In this document: piece after piece, positions 48,854 to 64,000 of the stretch
Position numbering within the stretch: the stretch's first letter is position 1
How the letters are laid out: the number at the start of each line of letters is the position of its first letter
Origin: a bacterium
Lineage (GTDB): Bacteria; UBA8248
Direction: 5' to 3'
DNA: 64,000 nt
Assembly (NCBI GenBank): GCA_963692865.2
Contig: OY843592.1
Location: forward strand, 2,528,001-2,592,000
The notes under the pieces: generated by a model
Databases searched by the model: none
The model's input: the letters and a program-made list of their open reading frames with translations, nothing else
What the model was told of the DNA's origin: nothing
Translations under genes and position numbers: made by a program

Positions 48854-50098
48854 TCAGGAGTGCGATGTCTCGAATTGACCTTTTTCGTATTGCGTTGCGA
48901 GTTCCTCTACGCGCTCAACAAGATTTTTCTTGATGTCTTCATAAGAGACCAAACCTGATTTTTCTCCTTTCATAAAAATCAAAGCGCGCTTATGGCCTCC
49001 GGCCACGCCGATGTCGGCGTCTCTCGCCTCGCCCGGACCGTTCACTTCACACCCCATGACGGCCACTGTGATGGGCGCATTGATATGGGCGAGTTCCTGT
49101 TCTACCTCCATGGTGAGCTTGTCCACGTCAATCTGGACGCGCCCGCACGATGGACACGCGACGACATTAACGCCTTTTTGGCGCAACTTCAGGCTTTTTA
49201 GAATTTCATAGCCCACGCGCACCTCCTCTACCGGGTCCGCCGCCAAAGAAACGCGGATGGTGTCCCCAATGCCTTCCGAGAGCAGAATGCCCAGGCCGAC
49301 AGCGCTTTTTATGCTGCCCGTCTGGAGGCTTCCACTCTCCGTGATGCCCAGATGAAGAGGATATTCGACGCGTTTCGCCATCAAGCGATAGGCTTTCACC
49401 GCCCTCGCGACATCGGAGGCTTTCAGAGAGATTTTCGTGGCAAAAAAGTTCCGCTTCTCCAGCATGGCGACATGGCGCAATCCGCTCTCCACCATCGCCT
49501 CGGGCGTTGCGCCGCCGAAACGATCGAGCAGATGCTTTTCCAAAGAGCCGGCGTTCACCCCTACGCGGATGGGCAAACCATGATCCTTCGCCGCAGCGAC
49601 GACCTCGCTTACCCTTTCCTCCCCATTGATGTTGCCTGGGTTGATACGCAAGCAATCAATCCCCGCATCCGCCGCCATCAAGGCATAGCGATAATCGAAA
49701 TGGATATCCGCGACCAAGGGCATCTCAGTGCGTTTTCTGATTTCATAAAGCGCGTTGGCCGACCTCTCGTCAGGAACGGCCAGACGCACAATTTCACACC
49801 CAGCGGCTTCCAGGCGCTCGATTTGGGCTACGGTCGCCTCCACATCGTGCGTGTAAGTGTTGCACATCGATTGCACGACGATGGGAGCGCCGCCACCGAT
49901 TTTGACGCCGCGCACTTCGACTTGGGAACTTTTTCGCCGATTCAGCGGGAACAAAGACGGATCCGCGCAAGGCAACGATTCGCCAGCTTCATCCACTCCA
50001 AGCATTGGCAGATCAGTGCTGCCCTGCTCTTTGGGGGGAAGCCCGACTCCCGGTATAGGCTTCGTGTAAAACACGTCGTCTGTAAACGGCTCAAACAC
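48854..50098 (-). CDS. ispG: (E)-4-hydroxy-3-methylbut-2-enyl-diphosphate synthase
   Basis: VQSMCNT, LVADIHFD, RINPGN, HLGITE, GDTIRVSL, CPSCGR, VMGCEVNGPGE. Confidence 0.97.
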   Translation of the reverse strand: MFEPFTDDVFYTKPIPGVGLPPKEQGSTDLPMLGVDEAGESLPCADPSLFPLNRRKSSQVEVRGVKIGGGAPIVVQSMCNTYTHDVEATVAQIERLEAAGCEIVRLAVPDERSANALYEIRKRTEMPLVADIHFDYRYALMAADAGIDCLRINPGNINGEERVSEVVAAAKDHGLPIRVGVNAGSLEKHLLDRFGGATPEAMVESGLRHVAMLEKRNFFATKISLKASDVARAVKAYRLMAKRVEYPLHLGITESGSLQTGSIKSAVGLGILLSEGIGDTIRVSLAADPVEEVRVGYEILKSLKLRQKGVNVVACPSCGRVQIDVDKLTMEVEQELAHINAPITVAVMGCEVNGPGEARDADIGVAGGHKRALIFMKGEKSGLVSYEDIKKNLVERVEELATQYEKGQFETSHS

Positions 50099-50109
50099 TA
50101 CGAAAGCTC

Positions 50110-51306
50110 CTATTCGCCTTTCTGGCTCTCAGGAGATAGTTTTATCGCGTTTTTATTTTCCCTCTCTTGCTTTTCTTTTTTCGTTATCGCGGCCGGTTCA
50201 CTCCTAAAAAGATAATATACGCTGTCTTTGTAAGTGGCAAAGATCATCAAACCGATGAGCAGAACGGTGCCCACCTGCATGGCCAGCTCCCGGACTCTCA
50301 GACTGATAGGTTTGCCACGCAAGCCTTCAATGAGCAAGAAAAAAATATGTCCGCCATCGAGAACCGGAATCGGCAGCAAGTTCAAAATCGCCAGGTTGAC
50401 GCTAAGTAAAATCGTGAACATGACGAGGTAGCGGAATCCGCGCTGCGCCTGTTCCGCGGCCACCACGGAAATACGGATCGGACCACCGATGTCCGCAGGA
50501 ATAGTCTTCGTGAGCATCGAATACAGCGTAACGACCGTTAAGCTGGCAATGCGGTAGTTTTGATCGAACCCCTTCCCCAAAGACTCAAAGAAGCCAAAAC
50601 GCTCGGTGTAGGTGCCTTGGCCGATCCTGATGCCGATTCGGCCATAACCCAACTCTTTGCCCGTCGCGCTCTTTGATGTTGGAACGATGGATGTTTCAAA
50701 AGACTTGCGGCCGCGCTCCACCGCCAGCACAAGTTTTTGCCCGGCGCTTTTTTGCACGATTGCGACAAGCTCGGACCATTTTTGAATCCGCTTCCCATCA
50801 ATGGCCACGATATGATCGCCGGTCTGGAGGTTCGCCTTTTGCGCAGGCGTATCGGGCAAAACACCGCCGACCCACGTTCCGGGGACGGGGATACCTCCAA
50901 GATGCAGTCCCCAACTGAGGAGTATTGCCAAGGCGACATTAAACAAGGGTCCAGCCGAAATGACAGCCAATCGGTGGCTCACCGGCCGCAAATAGAATGA
51001 TTTCTCCGGCTCATCCGGTTCTTTGGGAACATCAGGATCATCAGGTCGTGCTTCCGGGTCTTCTCCCAGGAGCTTTACATAACCGCCCAAGGGGATCAGA
51101 GACACGCGATATTCGGTCTCTCCCCGCTGAAAACCCCAGATGCGGCGACCGAAGCCCAAAGAAAACGTGGAAACGCCGATTTTGAGCCATTTCGCAACGA
51201 GATGGTGGCCCAACTCGTGGATGAAAATGAGCAGCCCCAGAACCAGCACGGCCCAGAAAATCGTCTGCCCGAAACCCATCACCCAGTTGATGATTTGCAT
51301 CGCCAT
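50110..51306 (-). CDS. rseP: RIP metalloprotease RseP
   Basis: HELGH, IPLGGYV, AGPLFN, PDZ domain, NLLPIPVLDGG. Confidence 0.96.
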   Translation of the reverse strand: MAMQIINWVMGFGQTIFWAVLVLGLLIFIHELGHHLVAKWLKIGVSTFSLGFGRRIWGFQRGETEYRVSLIPLGGYVKLLGEDPEARPDDPDVPKEPDEPEKSFYLRPVSHRLAVISAGPLFNVALAILLSWGLHLGGIPVPGTWVGGVLPDTPAQKANLQTGDHIVAIDGKRIQKWSELVAIVQKSAGQKLVLAVERGRKSFETSIVPTSKSATGKELGYGRIGIRIGQGTYTERFGFFESLGKGFDQNYRIASLTVVTLYSMLTKTIPADIGGPIRISVVAAEQAQRGFRYLVMFTILLSVNLAILNLLPIPVLDGGHIFFLLIEGLRGKPISLRVRELAMQVGTVLLIGLMIFATYKDSVYYLFRSEPAAITKKEKQERENKNAIKLSPESQKGE

Positions 51307-51324
51307 TCTCTAATGAATCCTTAT

Positions 51325-52053
51325 TTATTTCCGGCCGCTGGGGGCCGGCATTTGCAGAACTTCGACATTCGGCGGCACGACGAACTGAAATTTCTCTTCC
51401 GTGATTCTGACGTTTTCTTTGACATTTGAAAACCGCAAACGGCTCTTGTTGCCGATAAGATCGATATACGCCAAAGTGAGGATCATGAAATTTTCAGGCT
51501 CCACCTCTACCCACATTCGCCGAAACGAAGCGACCTCGGACTTCGGCTCCAAGCGAATGCGATGGGGTTGACCGGCCTTCCAGATTCCTCCACTTCGTCT
51601 GGCAATTCCAATCTCTTCCACGGTTACATGAAAATTCTTCCTCAAATTCCCCTTGCCTTCCAAAAACAACAAAGGGGTAGTCCCAAATCCAGCACTCCCG
51701 GTTTTGGAAACCATCACCTGTCTGAAGCGAGCCGTGTAGAGCCAAAACATGTGACCATCAGAGACCAGAACCTGCTTTTCAGGTTTGGCATACTCCATGC
51801 GCAATTTGCCGGGCTTTTTCCACAAGAGACTCCCGCTCGACGTCGTCGTCCGACCCAAGGACCTTAATTCATTTTTTTGCTCGAAAGAAGCTTGCAAAGA
51901 TAAAAGGGTCTCATATTTCTCCTGAAGCGCCGTGATTATCTTCTCGACTTCTGGATTCGATTCTTCCGCTAGAGACACGCCGTGAACGAAAACTTGTACA
52001 AATGCAGAAAACAAAAAAACCAATACCGAAATCCAGAAACTCAATTTGCGCAA
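51325..52053 (-). CDS. lolA: Outer-membrane lipoprotein carrier LolA
   Basis: Signal peptide, ASFEQ, KKPGKLRMEY, LVSDG..FWLY, FQFVVPPNVEV. Start approximate. Confidence 0.9.
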   Translation of the reverse strand: MRKLSFWISVLVFLFSAFVQVFVHGVSLAEESNPEVEKIITALQEKYETLLSLQASFEQKNELRSLGRTTTSSGSLLWKKPGKLRMEYAKPEKQVLVSDGHMFWLYTARFRQVMVSKTGSAGFGTTPLLFLEGKGNLRKNFHVTVEEIGIARRSGGIWKAGQPHRIRLEPKSEVASFRRMWVEVEPENFMILTLAYIDLIGNKSRLRFSNVKENVRITEEKFQFVVPPNVEVLQMPAPSGRK

Positions 52054-52078
52054 AATTCTCTTAATCCTATGTGAATGA

Positions 52079-52732
52079 CTATTCGAAGACCGGCGAAATG
52101 AAGCCCCTGCTTTCCATAAGAGCATCACCTGAGTATTTCACGACGCCACCAATGCAGTGAACGCTCCCCTCGGCGATGAGCCGCACCGCCAGCGGATATA
52201 TAAGGTGCTCATAAACGAGAATTCTCTTTGAGAGGGTTTCTTCATCATCACCTGGCAACACCGGCACGGCAGCTTGTAAAATAATAGGCCCCGTATCCAC
52301 TCCCTCGTCTACAAAGTGAACCGTGCAGCCTGTGACTCTCACGCCACCATCCAAGGCTTTTTTCTGCGCGTGAAGACCAGGAAAACTCGGCAGAAGCGAG
52401 GGATGAATGTTGATGATTCTTCCTGAAAAACGGCTCACAAACTCCGGAGGCAAAATGCGCATAAAACCAGCGCAACAGACGAGTTCGATTCCACAGCTTT
52501 CAAGCTCGTCGCCCATCTTCAGGTAAAAACCATCCTCTTCGGATGCCAGGTATCTGTGTCGTATTCCAGCCATTGAGGCGCGTTCGAGTGCATACGCCTT
52601 TTTTTTATCGCTCAACACCAACACAACTTCCGCCGGAAAATCCGCGTTCTCCCCGGCATCAATGAGGGCTTGCAGATTCGATCCACGCCCCGATGCCAAA
52701 ACGCCCACACGTAATCGTGCTCTTGGATACAC
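52079..52732 (-). CDS. purN: Phosphoribosylglycinamide formyltransferase
   Basis: LASGRGSNLQA, AGFMRIL, NIHPSLLP, GCTVHFVDEGVDTGPII. Confidence 0.97.
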   Translation of the reverse strand: MYPRARLRVGVLASGRGSNLQALIDAGENADFPAEVVLVLSDKKKAYALERASMAGIRHRYLASEEDGFYLKMGDELESCGIELVCCAGFMRILPPEFVSRFSGRIINIHPSLLPSFPGLHAQKKALDGGVRVTGCTVHFVDEGVDTGPIILQAAVPVLPGDDEETLSKRILVYEHLIYPLAVRLIAEGSVHCIGGVVKYSGDALMESRGFISPVFE

Positions 52733-53787
52733 TAGAATATGCCCTCAATGGCGACGGAGCGGCCAGCCTTTGGTTTTTTGACGACTTCGCCGACAACCAT
52801 GGCTTGTTCGCCTGCGTTTTTCAAACATTCGAGCAAAGGTTCCGTTCGCTCCGCCCTCGCGAGGAAGACAAACCCCAAGCCCATATTAAAAGTACGATAC
52901 ATCTCCGCGCTTTCAACCGGGCCGAGCTCTTGAATCAATGGGAATATCTCCGGCGTCTCCCATTTTTCAGGATAAAATTTGGCTTGCAGAGCCCCCGGAA
53001 TCACACGTCCCACGTTTCCCGGTATCCCGCCTCCCGTGATGTGCGCGAGACCGCTTACCCCCTCTTTTCCCCGAACGGAATTAGCCCCTGTGGCGTAAAT
53101 CCGAGTTGGCTCCAACAAAACATCTTCAACGGGAACACCGAGTCTTATCGACGCCATATCTCGTTTTTCCTTTGAATCAAATATCTTTCTCACCATGGAA
53201 AATCCGTTGCTATGAATTCCTGAAGAAGGTAGTGCGAGTATGATGTCTCCCGCTTTCACTGGGATTGCATTCTCCAATTCATTGCGTTCAACCACTCCCA
53301 CGACGAATCCAGCGAGATCATACACGCCCGGCTTATACATATCGGGCATCTCGGCCGTCTCGCCGCCAATCAGGGCGCACCCGGCTTCCCGGCAACCTCG
53401 AGCGATCCCGGACAGGACTGCCTTCAAGACGCTTTGGTCAATCTTTCCCGTCGCGATGTAGTCAAGGAAAAAAAGCGGCTCTGCTCCTGTGGTCAAGATG
53501 TCATTGACGCACATGGCCAGCAGGTCAATCCCGACTGAATCATGCCGCTCGAACTCCTGGGCCAAGAGCAATTTCGTGCCGACGCCGTCGGTACCTGAAA
53601 CGAGTACGGGGTCGTCATATCCTTCCCCCAGGCGAAACAGGCCTGCAAAATCCGCCGTCCCCTTCAGGATACGGCTACTTTGGTTATCGTGGGTAGACTT
53701 TACAGTTTGGGCGATAGACTGAACGAACCGCTCTCCCAAATCCACATCCACGCCTGTGTCACGGTATGTCAGACGATGATCTTTCAA
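52732..53787 (-). CDS. purM: Phosphoribosylformylglycinamidine cyclo-ligase
   Basis: TYRDTGVD, TDGVGTK, FFLDY, GGETAEMP, SSGIHSNGFS, AHITGGG, TFNMGLG. Confidence 0.97.
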   Translation of the reverse strand: MKDHRLTYRDTGVDVDLGERFVQSIAQTVKSTHDNQSSRILKGTADFAGLFRLGEGYDDPVLVSGTDGVGTKLLLAQEFERHDSVGIDLLAMCVNDILTTGAEPLFFLDYIATGKIDQSVLKAVLSGIARGCREAGCALIGGETAEMPDMYKPGVYDLAGFVVGVVERNELENAIPVKAGDIILALPSSGIHSNGFSMVRKIFDSKEKRDMASIRLGVPVEDVLLEPTRIYATGANSVRGKEGVSGLAHITGGGIPGNVGRVIPGALQAKFYPEKWETPEIFPLIQELGPVESAEMYRTFNMGLGFVFLARAERTEPLLECLKNAGEQAMVVGEVVKKPKAGRSVAIEGIF

Positions 53788-53838
53788 AAGTGGTGTTCCA
53801 TGATTTCGCAGGCGGAGTCGTTCAGAATGAACTCAAAA

Positions 53839-55971
53839 TCACCCATGGGCTTCCATCAATTTTTTGACCAATGCGACATTATGTCGATGACCACTCCTCT
53901 CAGCGGTCACTCTCCCTCGAATAGGACGACCGATTAAATACAGATCTCCTATCACGTCAAGAATTTTATGCCGAACGAACTCATTGGGAAATCGCAATTG
54001 GGTATTCACGACACGCGTCTTGTCTACCAGAATCACGTTATCCCAACGGCCACCCTCGGCCAAGCCCATTTTCTCGAGCGATTCCAATTCAGAGACAAAA
54101 CCAAATGTACGGGCCGGTGCGATTTCTTCTTGAAAACCCAAAGCATTCTTGTGTTCATAAAGATAGGCTTGCTTCCCAATCGGCTTGGGATAATCAATGA
54201 GATATGAAACCGAAAAAGAATCCGCAGGCTCTATGCGGATATAACCCTTCTCGTCGCCCGGCTCACCTACTTCGTAAACCTTATCAACCCACAAGTCTTC
54301 GCGTTTTTCTTTTTGATCCTCAATACCCGCTTCTTCAAGCAAGCGACAAAACTCGAGCGCCGATCCATCCATGACGGGCACTTCCTCGCTTATTTTAATG
54401 AGTATATTGCTTATCTTGTATGCGTGCAGCGCGCTCATGAGGTGCTCTATCGTTCGAGCCGTCACCGCTCCATTGCGCAAGTTCGTCGCATGGTTGGTGC
54501 CATCCACGAAATCAGCGTTCGCCCTCACGGTATCGGGGCTCGTCAGGTTGCCGAACTGAATCCCGCTCCCCGGCGGCAAGGGGTCAATGATCAATCCGGT
54601 TTTCAACCCGGAATGAAGCCCCCGGCCATACAACACGACGCTCTTCGAAATACTTCTTTGATTTGTTTTCCCGAGTGGCGACGACGGCGGCGATGCTGGC
54701 TCTATCTTGTATGCTCGAATCTTTCGCCTTAAGGCGGGCACCTTCATGCCCACCCCCCGGGCGGTTTTGCCGATGTCCCAACCGTGCTCCTCCAGGTGGA
54801 AGGAAAGATATTGTCTCTCCCACTGGGTTCTGGCCGCATTAAAATTCGAAGATGCGTCGTTCGTCGATTCGTCCGCCTCGAAATCAGAAACTTCGCGGAT
54901 CGCATGCGGCAAGTGGCCGATGCGAATCTCCGAGCCTTGCGATGTATGTGCCGCGGTGGTCACCGCGCTTTTCAGTTCGGCGATATTGCCCGGCCAATCG
55001 TAGTCTTCCAGAAGCGCGATGACATCTTCGGAGAATTCCTTCTCGTCCCCGCCAAATTCAGCGCATTCATCCAAGAATCTGTTGGCCAAAGGCAAGATGT
55101 CCTCTTTCCGCTCACGCAGAGGGGGCAAATGTATTACATCAGCGCCTATTTTTGTGGACAAAGCTCGCACGTAGGCCTTGTCTTTCGAGGTTCCCATATG
55201 ATCAACGGATGCCATCAGGCGCATCGAGCCCTTTGTATGCGCCAAGAATCGAGCGAGAAATTCCTGACCCTCCACTATGGGCAACTGCTCCAACCCGTCA
55301 AGATATAGCGTCCCCTGAAAGGTAGAGGGCGCCAGCCGATCCAGCGCCTCTTCCCATTCGTTTTTCCCCGATACCGGAAACAGCGAACGGCAATGAACAG
55401 GCCTAAGGTCTTCTTCTTTTCCAGCGCCGTTCTTGTGAATCACCTTTGCGATAAAACGTTTGCCGGTTCCTCTTTCACCCGCAATCAGCAAGGGGCCGAT
55501 ATCTTCCGCCGCATTCCTGACAGCTCTTCGAACCCTTTTAATGCTCTTGCTGGCGCCGTCAAGCATCACGTCGACGATATCATTCGCACTGAGTTCTTTG
55601 GCCCCTCGCGCTTGAACGGCGGCGTCGACTATGCGCAAAACGGTATCAATGGACAGGGGTTTTTCAATAAAATTGAAGGCGCCTAACTTTGTTGCGGCCA
55701 CTGCGGTTTCAATGTTGCCGTGGCCCGACATCAAGACGACCTCGATATCCGCGTTGGACTCTTTCACTGCCTGCAAAGTCTTGATCCCGTCAATGCCCGG
55801 CATCCAAACATCAACCAAAACCACATCCGGAGCTTCGGTCCGAACCAACTGAAGGGCAGTTTCTCCGGAATCGGCCTGTTCTACGCGATACCCCTCATCG
55901 CGCAAGACATCCTCCAGGCTTGCGAGTATTTCGCGCTCATCATCGACGATGAGAACATGTCCCTTATCCAA
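53839..55971 (-). CDS. lpxC: Fusion protein: NtrX-type response regulator (REC, degenerate sigma54-type AAA+, Fis-like HTH) plus LpxC UDP-3-O-acyl-GlcNAc deacetylase
   Basis: REC motifs LIVDDE, D54 in LVDVWMPGIDG, SGHG, FIEKP. AAA-like GERGTGK, LPPLRERKEDI, WPGNIAEL. From about aa 438, LpxC: QRSISK...GRGLHSG, TIEHLMSAL, VPVMDGSA, IAPARTFGF, EFVRHKILDVIGDL, SGH. Confidence 0.93.
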   Translation of the reverse strand: MDKGHVLIVDDEREILASLEDVLRDEGYRVEQADSGETALQLVRTEAPDVVLVDVWMPGIDGIKTLQAVKESNADIEVVLMSGHGNIETAVAATKLGAFNFIEKPLSIDTVLRIVDAAVQARGAKELSANDIVDVMLDGASKSIKRVRRAVRNAAEDIGPLLIAGERGTGKRFIAKVIHKNGAGKEEDLRPVHCRSLFPVSGKNEWEEALDRLAPSTFQGTLYLDGLEQLPIVEGQEFLARFLAHTKGSMRLMASVDHMGTSKDKAYVRALSTKIGADVIHLPPLRERKEDILPLANRFLDECAEFGGDEKEFSEDVIALLEDYDWPGNIAELKSAVTTAAHTSQGSEIRIGHLPHAIREVSDFEADESTNDASSNFNAARTQWERQYLSFHLEEHGWDIGKTARGVGMKVPALRRKIRAYKIEPASPPSSPLGKTNQRSISKSVVLYGRGLHSGLKTGLIIDPLPPGSGIQFGNLTSPDTVRANADFVDGTNHATNLRNGAVTARTIEHLMSALHAYKISNILIKISEEVPVMDGSALEFCRLLEEAGIEDQKEKREDLWVDKVYEVGEPGDEKGYIRIEPADSFSVSYLIDYPKPIGKQAYLYEHKNALGFQEEIAPARTFGFVSELESLEKMGLAEGGRWDNVILVDKTRVVNTQLRFPNEFVRHKILDVIGDLYLIGRPIRGRVTAERSGHRHNVALVKKLMEAHG

Positions 55972-58228
55972 TGGAAGCCGCCCTTTGCTTTTCAGGCGTT
56001 ATGTCCACAGCAGGCGTCAGTGGCAACGTAACGCGAAAAACGGAACCCGCCGGATGGTTGTCCCGCACGCTAATCGTTCCATTGTGATCGGCCACAATGC
56101 GGTGGCATATAGCCAAACCCAAGCCGGAGCCTCTATCTTTCGTGGAAAAATATGGCGAGAATATATGGCCTTTCATATTTTCCGATATCCCCTGCCCCTG
56201 GTCGACAACTTCAACAACTATCATGTTTCTGTCCTTATCACTCCATGCCTGCAAATCTACCCTGCCCTCGACCTCGTGGGATTCGAATGCGTTTTCCAGC
56301 AAATTGATGAACACGCGTTGCAACTGCTCGGAGTCCGCCATGACAGATGCGTTCCCGACATCGATATGAATGGAAAATTTCACATTCCCCTTCCTGCCGC
56401 GATATAAATTCGCGACATCCTCGATGAGGGGAACAAACCCGCAAAGTCTTAATCTCGGCTCCGGCATTCGCGCAAAGCGGCTGAATTCATTCACCATTTC
56501 AATCAGACTCGTCACCTGATTGATAATGGTATCCGTACAAGATTCAAATACTTCTACGAAGTCATAGGCTTCGCTTTCAAATTTTCTTTTCATTCTCTCG
56601 ACGGAGAGCTGGATCGGGGTAAGCGGATTTTTGATCTCATGCGCAATGCCACGAGCCACTTCCTGCCACGCGGCCACTTTTTGGGCCCGTATCAGGGCCG
56701 TCATGTCATCAAACACAATGACGGCTCCGATTCTGCCGCCATCCGCGCTATTGAGCAAAGTCAAGCTGGCGCGCAACGTCAACACCCGGCCATCAATCAT
56801 GATCTCTACCTGCTCCGAAGCGCTTTGATGTTTTTGGCCCCTCATGGAACGCATCAACTGGCGAACAGGTTCAAGATGCGCACTTTCGAAAACCTCGCTG
56901 AACATTCGTCCCACGGCATGCTGAGGTTCGATTCCCAACAATTCCCCAGCCGCTTTATTGAGGGTAGTAACACGCCCTCGGCGATTGATTGATATCACAC
57001 CGGCTGCGATATTTTCGAGCATCGCTTCCATATATCGGCGCCTGCTGTCGATTTCCAAGTTGGAGCGCCGCAGGATTTCAGAGGATTCTTCGATTTTCTC
57101 CTTATTTGCCAACAATTCCTCCGTCATGCCGTTGAATGCGTTGACCAAAAGCCCCACTTCGCCATCCGCTTGCGCATCTACGCGATGTTCGAGGTCGCCG
57201 CCCGACACCGCTCTTGTGGCTTGCGCTAATTTTTCGATGGGAACCGTGATCCCGCGAGCGAGGTAGAAGCCAAACCAGATGGCGGCAAACAGAATGAGCA
57301 AGGTGACCACGAGAAAAGTGATAATGTAGTTCGCTTTGATTGGATTCTTGGATTGCTCCAACTCTTTATAATTCACGAAAGAATCCGATATGCTCCTTAT
57401 CTTCTCAACAAGCCTATCCGACAGATATTTGGATATAACAACAAATCCCACCACTTTTTTTTGAACCTTCAAAGGCGCCACGCCATAGATGACGTCGCCT
57501 TTTTCCCAATTTTCCACACTTGATCGCGACTCCCCGTCAATTACCTGATCCACGTATCCCACCAATGGCGAGAACGTTGTGGCCCGCTCCAACCCCGGAC
57601 GCCTGAGCGACATGATCTCCTTCCGCTCTTTATCGTAGAGTTGGATAAAATCGACCCCCAAGCTCTTTCTCTCAGCCGCCAGCGTTTTTTCAATCGCCTT
57701 GTGGTTTTCCATGATGTCGGGGTGCGTCTTCTCCAACACAGACGCAAGACGACTCGCGCTGAACAGCGCGTTTCGCTCCACTTCGCGGTAATACGTTTGA
57801 GCTACTTCGAACGAGCCCTTGAGCGCGCTCTCCACATTCATGTTGAACAAGGCGTTGAAACTCTGGTTAATCAAGCCGCTGGCCACTATAAAAAGAGCCA
57901 TTACGGGAATGAGCGCAAACCCGACAAAAGCCAACACGAGTTTTAGTTGCAATCGTGAGCGACCGGCGCCCGTTCTCCCTTCGTAGTAAAGACGCACCAG
58001 ATTCTTCGCTATCAAGAGAATAACCACCAGGAGCAGAATGATACTCAGATTCACGAGCGCAAATACGACGACGTTGTTGAGCAGAGGGACTCCCGGCTCG
58101 AGTTCTTTGAAATAAATCCAAGCCGTGAACGAAAGGGTCGCAATTACGATCGAAGCGATGAAGAGGCGCAGAAGCGTTCTTCGCCGGCGCGAGGAGATTT
58201 CTTGATTGTTCAGTCGTTTTGAATACAC
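55964..58228 (-). CDS. ntrY: NtrY-type sensor histidine kinase (TMs, periplasmic domain, HAMP, PAS, HisKA, HATPase)
   Basis: WQEVARGIAHEIKNPLTPIQLSVER, MVNEFSRFARMP, NLLENA, DQGQG, PYFSTK..GSGLGL. Overlaps the regulator start. Confidence 0.92.
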   Translation of the reverse strand: MYSKRLNNQEISSRRRRTLLRLFIASIVIATLSFTAWIYFKELEPGVPLLNNVVVFALVNLSIILLLVVILLIAKNLVRLYYEGRTGAGRSRLQLKLVLAFVGFALIPVMALFIVASGLINQSFNALFNMNVESALKGSFEVAQTYYREVERNALFSASRLASVLEKTHPDIMENHKAIEKTLAAERKSLGVDFIQLYDKERKEIMSLRRPGLERATTFSPLVGYVDQVIDGESRSSVENWEKGDVIYGVAPLKVQKKVVGFVVISKYLSDRLVEKIRSISDSFVNYKELEQSKNPIKANYIITFLVVTLLILFAAIWFGFYLARGITVPIEKLAQATRAVSGGDLEHRVDAQADGEVGLLVNAFNGMTEELLANKEKIEESSEILRRSNLEIDSRRRYMEAMLENIAAGVISINRRGRVTTLNKAAGELLGIEPQHAVGRMFSEVFESAHLEPVRQLMRSMRGQKHQSASEQVEIMIDGRVLTLRASLTLLNSADGGRIGAVIVFDDMTALIRAQKVAAWQEVARGIAHEIKNPLTPIQLSVERMKRKFESEAYDFVEVFESCTDTIINQVTSLIEMVNEFSRFARMPEPRLRLCGFVPLIEDVANLYRGRKGNVKFSIHIDVGNASVMADSEQLQRVFINLLENAFESHEVEGRVDLQAWSDKDRNMIVVEVVDQGQGISENMKGHIFSPYFSTKDRGSGLGLAICHRIVADHNGTISVRDNHPAGSVFRVTLPLTPAVDITPEKQRAASIG

Positions 58229-58231
58229 AAC

Positions 58232-58837
58232 TCACATTCCTTGAAAGCCAAATGTCCGCGAATAACTCCAATCAGACTTCTTCCCCCAAAAAGCGAGTAA
58301 GTAATTAAAAGGAAAAACAAAATCTACATAATTCAACCGCGCTCTGATTTTGACATAATATCGATTATTGGGAGGCAATGCTTCACCAGAGAGAATGGGC
58401 GCGCCATTCAACTCGCGCATCCAGTCCATCATTTTGCCTTGGCTTTTTGTCACTTTTTTCTCAATGTCTTTTGCACCCTCTTTAAGATGAAAAGTATATG
58501 TTTTTTTCAACGCGCTATATTTCACCTGATGATGCAATTGTCGCGAAGAGACTTCCAAATCGTGGATCAGCTTTCGAGAGCGCAGGAGACTTACATCAAA
58601 AATAAACTTTGTGGGCACGCCGCTATGGATGGCTTCCAGCAGTTTTGGCGAAAATACGCCCAAAAGAGAACCAAAAACGAGCAACTCTCCATTTTTCTGA
58701 ACAACGATGATATCTTTTATTCGAATTCCACCTTGGTCATCCGTTGCGGAAAGCGCTGGATCCACCAGAGCAAAGAGCGCACAGATGGTAAGGGCGAACA
58801 TTCCCACAACAAATGTTTTCCGGGTTTCGGGCAACAT
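58232..58837 (-). CDS. DUF4390-like exported protein
   Basis: Signal peptide, EAIHSGVPTKF, VKYSALKKTY, YYVKIRARL, SDW; lies directly upstream of ntrY, the usual position for this family. Confidence 0.8.
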   Translation of the reverse strand: MLPETRKTFVVGMFALTICALFALVDPALSATDDQGGIRIKDIIVVQKNGELLVFGSLLGVFSPKLLEAIHSGVPTKFIFDVSLLRSRKLIHDLEVSSRQLHHQVKYSALKKTYTFHLKEGAKDIEKKVTKSQGKMMDWMRELNGAPILSGEALPPNNRYYVKIRARLNYVDFVFPFNYLLAFWGKKSDWSYSRTFGFQGM

Positions 58838-58862
58838 ATGCTCCCCTTGACCTTTAAGTCGA

Positions 58863-58891
58863 ATGCTATCGCATAAGCGCAAAGCTCTCAA
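58863..58891 (-). promoter_or_regulatory. Candidate sigma-70 promoter of the DUF4390-ntrY-ntrX::lpxC operon
   Basis: Minus strand TTGAGA-N17-TAGCAT, then GGGGAG RBS before ATG 58837. Confidence 0.45.
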
Positions 58892-58969
58892 TCCCGTGTT
58901 TCGTTTCTCTGTCCTCAAGGCTTCGTCAAACGCATCCAGATTGCGCACCGCGCTCTACATCCATTTTTC

Positions 58970-61653: not shown

Positions 61654-62052
61654 CTACTCCGCCTTCGATTCGCGGGGCGAGAGGCTCGCCTGAGATTTGG
61701 AATCAGTTTTCGATGTACGTTCATCAAGTGCGGTTGCGGATTCGTCAGCTTCTGGATTTCCCATCGCAAGGAGTCTGCCGCTTTTATCACCCGCCTTATC
61801 CAGATTGCTCTCCAACGCCTTTACCTCGCGTTTCAATTTTCCGATTTGGTTCCTGAACCTCAACCTGTCCAATACCCCGCCAAACCATGCCGCGATGAAT
61901 CCGAACGCAAACACGGCCAACAGCACATAAAAAAGAGGCAGGCTGATGCTGCCTTGATAATAGGCGACAGTGACCGGTTCCATGTTGATGACACCAAAAC
62001 TCGTAATCACCAACGCCAGAATCAAACCGATGATGAGTCGAAGACTACCCAT
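61654..62052 (-). CDS. lapA: Lipopolysaccharide assembly protein A (LapA/DUF1049 family)
   Basis: TM1-FGVINMEPVTV...SLPLFYVLL-TM2-coiled coil (RNQIGKLKREVKALE); GGTGGTG RBS before ATG 62052. Confidence 0.8.
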   Translation of the reverse strand: MGSLRLIIGLILALVITSFGVINMEPVTVAYYQGSISLPLFYVLLAVFAFGFIAAWFGGVLDRLRFRNQIGKLKREVKALESNLDKAGDKSGRLLAMGNPEADESATALDERTSKTDSKSQASLSPRESKAE

Positions 62053-62069
62053 ATCACCACCAAATCCAA

Positions 62070-62235
62070 AGGGTTCTGAGGTTTCAAAATCAGGGCGGAA
62101 TTGATTGCGGATCGTCTCTAAATTATCGGGAATCACCCGCACGCCGCCGGGAGCGGCATAAGATTCTGCTCCATCCTCCCAACGCGGAACGATGTGCACG
62201 TGCGAATGGCCGGTAATTCCTGCGCGGTGGCGTCC
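62070..62235 (-). pseudogene. C-terminal remnant of a HIT-family nucleotide hydrolase, in frame with lapA
   Basis: AGITGHSHVHIVPRW...VRVIPDNLE carries the HxHxH triad. There is no room for the N-terminal ~100 aa before ybeY. Confidence 0.65.
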
Positions 62236-62248
62236 ACGATGTTTCCAC

Positions 62249-62728
62249 TCAAGAATTCTCCGGCTTGCGTCTAGACAGCCATCCCCCGTCAAGCAGACAG
62301 GCGATTCTTTGTTCTTCCTCATTCATGCGCGCGGATTCCGCCTTCGTGTAATGATCATACCCCTTGAGGTGTAAAAGGCCATGCACGAGCAGCCGCTCCG
62401 CCAAGACTCCATAATCAACCGCCTCGGCCTCCGCCTGGCGGAGCACCTCATCCACGCAGATGACCAATTCTCCCCCAAAAGCCTTCCCCTCCCCTTGCTC
62501 GTCCACAGGCGGAAAAGAATCCGCCGGCGGAAAAGCCAACACATCCGTTGTTTCGTCTTCCTCCCGATATCGGGAATTCAACGCGCGCATCTGCTCGTCT
62601 CGAATGAATACGACGCTGAACCAGTCATCTTCGGACCGGAGAGCTTTCCGTATGACGTCCAAATGTTGCCTCAGCGCTTTGTGATCCAGCGCGAACAGCT
62701 TTTGATCGTTTTTGATGAGGACTTCCAT
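62249..62728 (-). CDS. ybeY: rRNA maturation RNase YbeY
   Basis: MRALNSRYR...TDVLAF, GELVIC, VHGLLHLKGYDH. Start ATG 62728. Confidence 0.93.
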   Translation of the reverse strand: MEVLIKNDQKLFALDHKALRQHLDVIRKALRSEDDWFSVVFIRDEQMRALNSRYREEDETTDVLAFPPADSFPPVDEQGEGKAFGGELVICVDEVLRQAEAEAVDYGVLAERLLVHGLLHLKGYDHYTKAESARMNEEEQRIACLLDGGWLSRRKPENS

Positions 62729-64000
62729 TCGCAGCTCCTTTCTTCGGAGCGCCTTCTTGTCCCGGATAATGAATCCGGTGGTGATGAATGCCAACCAAAA
62801 CGCGCATGAAGGCATCCTGAATGTTGCTCAAATCCCTGAGTGTGAGGCTGCAATTGTCCAATTGCCCCTCCACGAAAGCGCTCTGGACGATTCTGTCCAC
62901 CAAGGCGCTCAGGCGGCCGAGAGAATGGTCCGACAGCGAATGCGACGATGCCTCCACCATATCAGCCAGCATCAGGATGCCCGCTTCTCTCGTCTGGGGT
63001 CTTGGCCCCGGATAGCGAAAAAACTCTTCTGTCACGCCATCCCCATTTTGATCCTTCGCCTTCTCGTAAAAAAACCGAATCAAGGATGTGCCATGATGTT
63101 GCTGAATCAAATCGATGATCTCTTTGGGCAGTTGATGGCTTTTGGCAAGTTCCACTCCCTCTTTCACATGGCTGATCAGGATGAGCGCGCTCATGTTGGG
63201 CTTGAGTCTGTCGTGCCGGTTTTCGCGCCCCTGGTTTTCGATGAAATACTCCGGTTTCATCATCTTGCCGATATCGTGGAAATACGCGCCCACGCGCGTT
63301 AGAAGCGGATTCGCGCCGACCGCCTCGGACGCCTCCTCCGCCAGGTTGCCTACGAGAAGGCTGTGGTGGTAGGTGCCTGGCGCGCCGACAACCATCTTTC
63401 TCAGTAGCGGGTGATTCTGGTCGGCCAACTCCAGAAGGCGCATGTCGGTCGTGAGTTTGAAAATCGACTCGAGCAGGGGCATGGCGCCGGCTACGATGAT
63501 GACGTTGGAAAGGCCGCCGAGCAATGCGATGGGAACATCCGTCCATTGCATAATTGCGGCGCGGAAACCCTCCTGCACGTTGAAACCCAGAGCGAGCGCA
63601 GCGCCCAGCAGACCCAGGATGAGCGCCACGATAAGCACGGAAGTCCTGCGACGATATTCTTTCCATCGAATGGCCGACAGCACGCCGCCGGCCAGGGCGA
63701 CAAGGCTGAAGTTCATATGATTCGGCAAAATCAGTCCGGTCAGAACGGCGGAGAAAATCGCCATCAACACCGCGGATGAGCGTCCCAGTAAAACGGCCGC
63801 GAGCAGAGAGGCGGAACAAAATGGAATGACGTAGTAGAACGAGTGTAGTGGAATCCCCCGAAAAGTTTCATGCAACACTTCGGAGAAAAGAATGCCCATT
63901 TTCAGCAAAACAGCCTGGCTTAAAAGCAGTATCACGAAAAGTGTTACGTTTTTTTGCGATGACAAAAAACTCACGTCGTATTTCTGCACGCAAATCCATG
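62625..64000 (-). CDS. 7TM-HD membrane phosphohydrolase (PgpH/YqfF-like); 5' part outside the window
   Basis: Multiple TMs, LLELADQNHPLLR, APGTYHHS, YFHDIGK, FIENQ, SHVKEG, QHHGT, FRYPGPRP, LMLADMVEA. Confidence 0.92.
   Translation of the reverse strand, partial: WICVQKYDVSFLSSQKNVTLFVILLLSQAVLLKMGILFSEVLHETFRGIPLHSFYYVIPFCSASLLAAVLLGRSSAVLMAIFSAVLTGLILPNHMNFSLVALAGGVLSAIRWKEYRRRTSVLIVALILGLLGAALALGFNVQEGFRAAIMQWTDVPIALLGGLSNVIIVAGAMPLLESIFKLTTDMRLLELADQNHPLLRKMVVGAPGTYHHSLLVGNLAEEASEAVGANPLLTRVGAYFHDIGKMMKPEYFIENQGRENRHDRLKPNMSALILISHVKEGVELAKSHQLPKEIIDLIQQHHGTSLIRFFYEKAKDQNGDGVTEEFFRYPGPRPQTREAGILMLADMVEASSHSLSDHSLGRLSALVDRIVQSAFVEGQLDNCSLTLRDLSNIQDAFMRVLVGIHHHRIHYPGQEGAPKKGAANGSPHQKRSKAVRAGSQSAEATFGRHTESSPVRR

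Follow-up and report, generated by a model that had tools for sequence, protein, structure and literature searches.

The zinc deacetylase LpxC, which commits UDP-3-O-acyl-GlcNAc to lipid A, is the main control point of lipopolysaccharide synthesis as well as a long-standing antibiotic target. Regulation of the enzyme beyond a few proteobacteria is still largely open, and the section on other organisms in the available part of a 2025 review is short (PMC12444477). The stretch of bacterial DNA considered here (64,000 nucleotides of contig OY843592.1, assembly GCA_963692865.2, GTDB lineage UBA8248; hereafter the window) raises the question of why such an enzyme should be part of a response regulator, as a single open reading frame (ORF) on its minus strand (53839–55971) encodes both in one protein. 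This ORF is a genuine, ancient and conserved gene fusion. As to its function, we give slightly better than even chances to the reading that a regulator of lpxC captured its own target, and that the adjacent NtrY-type kinase controls LpxC post-translationally via phosphorylation of the attached receiver (REC) domain.

The regulator–LpxC fusion and its distribution

The preliminary description of the window had noticed an uninterrupted frame of 710 amino acids (aa) joining a regulator to LpxC, and this frame holds up: it translates from a TTG start into 710 aa plus the stop, with no internal stop codon, and Pfam recognizes REC, AAA+, helix-turn-helix (HTH) and LpxC domains within it. The REC domain occupies residues 6–114 (55630–55956; Response_reg PF00072, E 2.8e-30) and carries the acidic pair D10/D11, the phospho-acceptor D54, S82 of an SGHG motif, the aromatic switch residue F101 and K104-P105. 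It is followed by a decayed AAA+ core at residues 139–285 (55117–55557; Sigma54_activ_2, E 1.3e-10), of which the Pfam model Sigma54_activat matches residues 139–196 only, corresponding to 3–60 of its 168 profile positions, by an AAA+ lid at residues 286–367 (54871–55116; AAA_lid_14, E 8.5e-21), and by a borderline Fis-type HTH at residues 383–421 (54709–54825; HTH_8, 22.9 bits against a cut-off of 22). A Pro/Ser-rich linker at residues 422–437 (54661–54708), with the sequence IEPASPPSSPLGKT and a predicted local confidence (pLDDT) below 50 at residues 427–432, then leads into a complete LpxC domain at residues 438–706 (53854–54660; Pfam PF03331, E 5.9e-83), in agreement with its earlier placement at about 53839–54666; all of these features lie on the minus strand. 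The LpxC domain scores 278.9 bits on PF03331 (cut-off 27), covering 1–267 of 268 profile positions, and passes the NCBIfam lpxC model TIGR00325 with 239.5 bits (cut-off 187.25). Its motifs GLHSG, TIEHL, TFGF, HKILDVIGD and SGH align residue for residue with solved LpxC chains (E about 1e-47), and its zinc and catalytic positions are identical to those of the aligned chains, namely the positions of H79, H238, D242, E78, H265, T191, K239, D246 and H19 (E. coli/P. aeruginosa numbering), which we take to be the LpxC zinc/catalytic residues. The motifs read off previously, that is, the DD pocket, D54, SGHG and KP of the receiver and EH, HKxxD and SGH of LpxC, are all present. The protein ends four residues past the LpxC domain and lacks a long C-terminal tail. 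An LpxC–FabZ type of protein was excluded, since the score on the LpxC/FabZ model NF009667 is below the cut-off (211.6 bits against 465, from the LpxC part only) and the C-terminal FabZ dehydratase domain is absent.

An AlphaFold2 model of the full protein, built on 89 homologues, shows all four modules folded (mean pLDDT 81.7), with the HTH as three helices and with low-confidence hinges at residues 130–132, 364–374 and 427–432. The term NtrX-type, applied to the regulator part at first reading, stands in one respect and falls in another: the fusion is a REC-AAA-HTH regulator directly after an NtrY-type kinase, and the best solved-structure match of its N-terminal 430 residues is Brucella NtrX (5m7n, E 8e-44), but it reaches only 234.3 bits on the NCBIfam NtrX equivalog NF051870, against a cut-off of 600, and its AAA+ domain is decayed. 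In a comparison with NtrC1, Brucella NtrX and unfused relatives, Walker A is kept in the window's protein (GERGTGK), GAFTGA is absent, Walker B reads DG instead of DE, sensor I is altered, GNIAELK stands in place of GNVRELK at sensor II, and the motif of the arginine finger has been lost; the fusion therefore falls short of the set of Walker A/B, sensor I/II and arginine fingers that makes a competent AAA+ ATPase.

There is next to no probability that the frame arose through faulty assembly, is a read-through private to this genome, or belongs to a dying gene. The fusion is the single PF03331 match of its own genome (4.15 Mb, 97.4% complete), which settles the earlier question of whether this is the only lpxC, and the genes for LpxA, LpxB and LpxK are present in the same genome, about 0.9 Mb away; the lipid A pathway therefore needs the fusion enzyme, which on this evidence is probably a functional LpxC serving that pathway. 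Contigs from four public runs (three samples of one study, possibly the genome's own source, and contigs only) cover 53700–55386, including the junction, with 0 differences and 0 indels; at 54600–54800, where a check of coverage had been advised, they span the junction with no stop or frameshift. No in-frame ATG, GTG or TTG occurs from residue 412 to 445 of the ORF, so that the Pro-rich linker is, as had been remarked, free of start codons over this range. The same open frame recurs in dozens of independent assemblies from several phyla, the junction is identical in the contigs of all three samples, and the sole LpxC sits where the rest of the lipid A pathway is encoded, all of which speak against an artefact. 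Nothing supports one, the only irregular cases being G015, a same-genus genome of 8 Mb with the match in two frames, and genes cut by contig ends; the artefact or read-through reading is refuted by the conserved frame across genomes and by the junction contigs.

Within the same genus, 19 of 22 genomes match residues 1–709/710 in one open frame at 70–87% identity, and the remaining three comprise a shorter in-frame form (G009, in which the AAA+/HTH middle is deleted), one match broken by contig ends, and the irregular G015. In the latter (8.0 Mb assembly; C19:33661–35593), residues 1–373 and 412–643 lie in a frame of 662 aa and the end of LpxC in another, which may reflect faulty assembly, a frameshift or a copy in decay. 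Full-length matches extend through family, order and class at 43–55% identity, with one LpxC locus per genome among the same-class relatives, and one full-length match was found outside the phylum (41% identity). In a phylum set of 49 genomes, each at least 80% complete, LpxC was present in 48; the open frames of all 43 complete matches measure 432–755 aa, 34 of them long and 9 short (432–538 aa), and none of the 43 has a frame of standalone-LpxC size. The fusion supplies the only LpxC of its own genome and of every sampled genome of the phylum. Conservation across genus, class and phylum, in relatives that carry no separate standalone lpxC, bears out the original view of a real fusion.

The architecture is also found well beyond the phylum, in both long and short forms, as a search of relatives suggested at the outset has shown. 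A protein-collection search with the LpxC part, among proteins of 390–1243 aa, gave 5772 matches, the best 120 of which are all LpxC with a receiver or truncated versions thereof. The long form (about 700–740 aa) has the order REC-AAA-lid(-HTH)-LpxC, and the short form (about 432–460 aa) is REC-LpxC, with a low-complexity, often basic linker of 60–95 aa after the receiver in place of AAA+/HTH. Records of fused LpxC are named Nitrospinae/Nitrospinota, Tectomicrobia, Thermodesulfobacteriota, Acidobacteriota, Syntrophobacterales, Desulfomonile, Syntrophorhabdus, Thermoanaerobaculia, Holophagae, Aminicenantes, Thermodesulfovibrionia and Desulfocapsaceae, and include the isolate Desulfopila sp. IMCC35006. 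The fusion of a receiver with LpxC is not a rare architecture, and it occurs in records named from several phyla, where the databases call the proteins plainly 'UDP-3-O-acyl-N-acetylglucosamine deacetylase' or 'NtrX'. The fused gene is the only LpxC in four of the five genomes behind fused loci named from other groups. Desulfopila sp. IMCC35006 (G057, L070) has two LpxC loci (C22:125342–126157 and C93:50829–51659), one encoding a standalone LpxC (330-aa open frame, 322 bits) and the other a REC-LpxC (452-aa open frame, 246 bits), which has no adjacent kinase and lies among genes that include those for a hemerythrin-PilZ protein and an NlpC/P60 protein. Two Acidobacteriota-type loci, L026 (G061:C6:758884–759684) and L022, have matched regions of 2.6–2.8 kb, and LpxC of L026 lies in a 544-aa open frame, longer than the usual short form. 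A search for shorter LpxC relatives returned mainly fragments on contigs of 1–3 kb.

Conserved ends and a decaying middle

The domains of the fusion differ in how they have been kept. Conservation was followed in an alignment of 70 long and 44 short homologues, counts from which P0002 (identical to P0001) and six proteins of 436–630 aa, intermediate and probably truncated, were left out. D54 and K104 are kept in 70/70 long and 44/44 short forms, D10 and D11 in 68/70 and 44/44, position 82 carries either S or T throughout, and F101 is nearly invariant. At the other end of the protein, ten LpxC zinc/catalytic positions are kept in 70/70 long and in 43–44 of 44 short forms. The middle has fared differently: the Walker A lysine is kept in all 70 long forms, the Walker B Glu in none, and GAFTGA in none of 23 long fused representatives, while the HTH segment is missing from 5 of these 23 and from all short forms. 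Mean identity of the receiver is similar among fused long forms (0.535) and among unfused regulators of the same kind (0.568), and is about 0.52 between fused and unfused NtrX receivers; that of the AAA+ core is 0.258 among fused long forms versus 0.580 among unfused regulators, and mean pairwise identity of the HTH is 0.294 versus 0.476. As judged from these alignments, strong constraint acts on the phospho-acceptor residues of REC and on the catalytic ones of LpxC; between them, the AAA+ and HTH middle is relaxing and decaying, and it has repeatedly been deleted to give REC-LpxC. A sigma-54 activator identity of the fusion was considered and dropped: with neither GAFTGA nor the Walker B Glu, sigma-54 activation by the fusion is excluded. 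Feedback of LpxC ligands on DNA binding, as had been suggested, is likewise disfavoured, because the HTH evolves fast and is often missing (all short forms and 5/23 long ones). The deletion variants, which retain only REC and LpxC, fit a receiver that acts on the enzyme.

The history of these forms was approached through the LpxC domain itself. Scanning 1.84 billion representatives with the LpxC part gave 8499 relatives, and the 150 nearest to the query, together with P0001, were classed as 16 long, 19 short, 7 N-extended without a receiver (probably truncated), 87 standalone, 5 C-extended and 17 partial rows. In a maximum-likelihood tree of the 134 non-partial LpxC domains (17 partial rows dropped), with midpoint rooting only, one clade of 46 (SH-aLRT 98) takes in all 42 fused rows, and 86 standalone or C-extended rows lie outside it, among them the C-terminally extended ones (5 of the 150 nearest representatives). 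Members of the fused clade share the LpxC signature residues G459, Y518, K526 and C542, plus small indels. These fused LpxC domains share one origin. Within the clade, long and short rows are interleaved, and sister pairs have support values of 100 and 95, which is most simply read as repeated loss of AAA+/HTH; G009, from the genus of the window, is one example.

Ancestry, gene neighbourhood and proposed mode of control

What the regulator was before the fusion can be approached from its unfused relatives. Genome loci were found with the family alignment; two peptide patterns served to pick them, and the 80 considered are the best of at least 591 and not a random sample. Fifty of these 80 loci carry an unfused regulator (counting L015, a contig-end fragment of residues 1–445), and ntrY lies directly upstream in 40 of the 50. 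Where an unfused, NtrY-adjacent locus has the full 4 kb upstream, a separate same-strand lpxC is found upstream in 18 of 34 cases, in the order lpxC-(DUF4390)-ntrY-regulator, in records named Deltaproteobacteria, Syntrophales, Smithellaceae, Desulfobacterales, Acidoferrum, Rokubacteria and others. The lpxC-cluster loci are found within L038–L092, for example L042 (80–856), L046 (231–1040) and L088 (16–675). The unfused ntrY-adjacent regulators are canonical sigma-54 activators, with GAFTGA in most, Walker B DE, arginine fingers FREDLYYRL and GNVRELK; with these motifs and a conserved HTH retained, they act on transcription. The nearest unfused relatives of the fusion are such canonical activators, and not alphaproteobacterial NtrX. 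In the accessible part of PMC3333781, lpxC is the single mapped target of the Desulfovibrio vulgaris regulator DVU2934, and the operon of the orthologous regulator in Syntrophobacter fumaroxidans has lpxC directly upstream. We infer that DVU2934 is orthologous to the unfused lpxC-linked regulators, and the lpxC-ntrY-regulator clusters agree with the DVU2934–lpxC link as that part of the paper gives it (PMC3333781). In addition, NtrYX represses lpxC transcription in Rhodobacter sphaeroides and Caulobacter crescentus, according to the portions seen of PMC7240162 and PMC12444477.

In the window, the fusion is the last member of a DUF4390-ntrY-ntrX::lpxC module, all on the minus strand. The kinase of 754 aa (55964–58228) is an NtrY-type sensor histidine kinase with the Pfam domains NtrY_N, HAMP, PAS, HisKA and HATPase_c, and its stop overlaps the start codon region of the fusion by 8 nt. 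The first gene of the three (58232–58948) encodes a PlrP-like DUF4390 protein (Pfam DUF4390, E 1.7e-26), whose N-terminus looks signal-like when the translation is judged by eye; its true start is likely to be the Met at residue 38 (about 58837), after which a hydrophobic stretch ends in ALSA. The product is probably a periplasmic accessory protein of the NtrY-type kinase. Among 32 same-class genomes with the fusion, 31 have NtrY at most 345 nt upstream of it, and the other, G025, has a gap of 1.45 kb; phosphotransfer from NtrY to the REC domain of the fusion would be expected from this adjacency of ntrY. A Desulfomonile metagenome-assembled genome differs in that a hybrid kinase with three receiver stretches, PAS, HisKA and HATPase_c, not NtrY, precedes its long fusion (L019, 713–3277, plus strand), and the kinase feeding the fused receiver may differ between lineages.

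Other genes surround the module. Downstream of the fusion, on the same strand, lie purM and purN, followed after short gaps, at 48854–52128, by genes for a LolA-like lipoprotein carrier, an RseP-like M50/PDZ site-2 protease and IspG; several of these downstream envelope-related genes may share transcription with the module. A scan for promoters and terminators between 51000 and 62500 gave nothing above chance (8 promoter-like sites versus 8.4 expected, and 11 terminator-like sites versus 13.7). Two genes upstream of the module, and separated from it by mutS, lies a gene for a 222-aa LapA-domain protein (lipopolysaccharide assembly protein A; 61654–62322, minus strand, E 4.7e-15), with no LapB-type gene after it. 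The LapB zinc ribbon PF18073 has no match in the genome of the window, the model being one of 28 positions that matches 10 of 14 controls, Gram-positives included. At the window edge, the minus strand encodes a 7TM receptor with an intracellular HD hydrolase domain (7TMR-HD; 62625–63989).

From these observations, a course of events can be proposed. The ancestor would have been a sigma-54 activator controlling lpxC transcription, its gene would have fused to its own target, and control would then have shifted from transcription to the protein itself. Phosphorylation of D54 would be set by the NtrY-type kinase/phosphatase, which the periplasmic DUF4390 protein would tune, and LpxC output would in turn be set by the state of REC. 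We put at about even the chances of this account as a whole, in which a sigma-54 activator fused to lpxC, lost its ATPase and DNA binding, and now relays the state of a periplasm-facing NtrY/DUF4390 sensor to the enzyme. In CheB, as in the fusion, a receiver with a complete phospho-acceptor set is placed N-terminal to a hydrolytic enzyme domain and joined to it via a flexible linker, and the logic proposed is one of a receiver gating the active site. For the fusion, a CheB-like gating in which the receiver docks on, or releases, the catalytic domain would be the most likely mode, and it is favoured because only the end domains are conserved while the linkers vary, from 16 residues plus a relic of 300 residues in the long forms to 60–95 disordered residues in the short ones. 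That phosphorylation switches LpxC on would be our guess, by analogy with the activator ancestry.

Several points weigh against this account. The effect of phosphorylation on LpxC activity, stability or location is one that we infer from sequence features, and the AlphaFold2 model of the fusion gives no confident domain arrangement (pTM 0.44); a complex prediction of REC (1–125) with LpxC (432–710), cut from the alignment, scored 0.26 against a mark of 0.32 and says nothing either way. The HTH of the window's protein is still recognizable, and DNA binding may therefore persist in its genus. An in-frame ATG at residue 409, inside the HTH and with a G-rich stretch upstream, makes an internal start conceivable, so that a near-standalone LpxC may be produced by internal initiation, Met409 not being conserved among the aligned relatives. 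An adjacent NtrY-type kinase is found in only 3 of 21 short forms outside the phylum, and the neighbours of four such kinase-less short loci are unrelated genes, while NtrY is adjacent in 2 of 5 long loci (including L014, with an ntrY that overlaps the start of the fusion); the kinase link can therefore be taken as established for the Nitrospinota-type loci and a few others only. In Desulfopila, the additional standalone LpxC means that the fused form is not always the housekeeping enzyme, and in the LpxC tree four rows without an N-terminal extension lie inside the 46-row fused clade.

Other ways of using a receiver have to be weighed against direct gating. Single-domain receivers such as RssB and CpdR are protease adaptors, and the REC domain could similarly be a built-in, phospho-dependent degron or protease adaptor, with phosphorylation setting the amount of LpxC in place of the enterobacterial FtsH/LapB route. 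A conserved REC pocket would suit such a role as well as it suits gating, the LpxC domain ends just after its last helix with no long C-terminal tail, and regulated proteolysis is the best-known control of LpxC in what is available of the review (PMC12444477). We nevertheless regard this as doubtful, as there is no pointer to a particular protease, and the LpxC signature residues of the fused clade, as well as the retention of REC across very different linkers, are explained equally well or better by contact between the two domains. Less probable again, and to our minds unlikely, is a bifunctional protein whose N-terminal part is a DNA-binding regulator, possibly autoregulating the operon, with LpxC as a constitutive passenger fused for co-expression. 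The three-helix HTH and the Walker A motif kept in the window's protein would suit it, as would the transcriptional nature of the known regulator–lpxC links in other bacteria. It has to contend, however, with an HTH and an AAA+ core that evolve about twice as fast as in unfused regulators, with the loss of the HTH from 5 of 23 long representatives and of the whole middle even in the same-genus G009, with the exclusion of sigma-54 activation by the absent GAFTGA and Walker B Glu, and with the phospho-acceptor REC that the short forms keep in 44/44 cases after losing AAA+/HTH.

The receiver might also serve as a tether, docking on the membrane-bound NtrY and holding LpxC at the inner membrane near the later lipid A enzymes, with phosphotransfer mattering little for catalysis. 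The tight adjacency of ntrY with its overlapping stop and start, and the fused-to-unfused REC identity (0.52), which is close to that among fused forms (0.535) as expected for a kinase-docking surface, are in keeping with this idea, and Neisseria LapB/Ght has been proposed to localize LpxC to the membrane (PMC12444477, as far as its available text goes). Most short forms elsewhere have no adjacent kinase on which to dock, however, and the near-invariant phospho-switch set, including S/T82, F101 and K104, exceeds the needs of docking; we therefore consider a mere tether very improbable. If control of LpxC by the phosphorylated receiver is true, it would be a new principle of LpxC regulation, and would document how one and the same signalling system passed, in the course of evolution, from transcriptional to post-translational control. 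It would form a natural experiment in which LpxC has been wired to a receiver in many lineages and, in the phylum, also to a defined kinase and a periplasmic accessory protein. Separate clustered genes, the long fusion with its decaying AAA+/HTH, and the minimal REC-LpxC present a graded series, from which a regulator-captures-target model may be drawn, and the fusion would give a reason why NtrYX-family systems recur as regulators of the envelope and of lpxC. The signal that sets lipid A flux becomes testable with one purified protein and a phosphomimic, and since Desulfopila sp. IMCC35006 is cultured and has the short form together with a standalone LpxC, genetics should be possible.

Comparison with known systems

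In E. coli, LpxC is controlled by FtsH/LapB/YejM proteolysis and by other routes, according to the accessible part of the review, and the need is the same, namely enough lipopolysaccharide but not an excess (PMC12444477). The fusion differs in having no C-terminal tail, and control would come from the attached receiver and the sensor kinase. LpxC-FabZ is the other multidomain LpxC, but its extension is C-terminal and metabolic, whereas that of the fusion is N-terminal and belongs to signalling. A full-text search, outside which most subscription journals lie, found no paper on a receiver–LpxC or NtrX–LpxC fusion, in line with the initial remark that no protein of this architecture had been characterized, and the words 'fusion' and 'fused' are absent from the available part of the 2025 review of lipid A regulation (PMC12444477).

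Among signalling systems, the Bordetella PlrP-PlrS-PlrR module resembles that of the window in its order of DUF4390, NtrY-type kinase and REC-AAA-HTH regulator, and there is genetic evidence that DUF4390/PlrP is a periplasmic third component restraining the phosphatase activity of the NtrY homologue PlrS; the part of that 2026 paper available to us makes no mention of LpxC or lipid A (PMC13001219). The sigma-54 activators beside ntrY in Desulfobacterota and Acidobacteriota share with the fusion a REC domain of about 52% identity and an upstream DUF4390 and ntrY, but there the regulator and lpxC are separate genes. Brucella NtrX, like the fusion, has no GAFTGA; it has kept Walker B DE, however, and the fusion has lost the Walker B Glu, the sensor II Arg and the arginine finger. 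Unlike NtrY-NtrX systems in general, the protein of the window has its regulator covalently joined to LpxC. With CheB, the comparison is one of layout, and two differences stand out: the output of the fusion is a biosynthetic zinc deacetylase of an essential envelope pathway and not a signalling enzyme, and many fused LpxC members keep a vestigial AAA+/HTH between receiver and enzyme. Receivers on enzymes are already known, while a receiver on LpxC is new.

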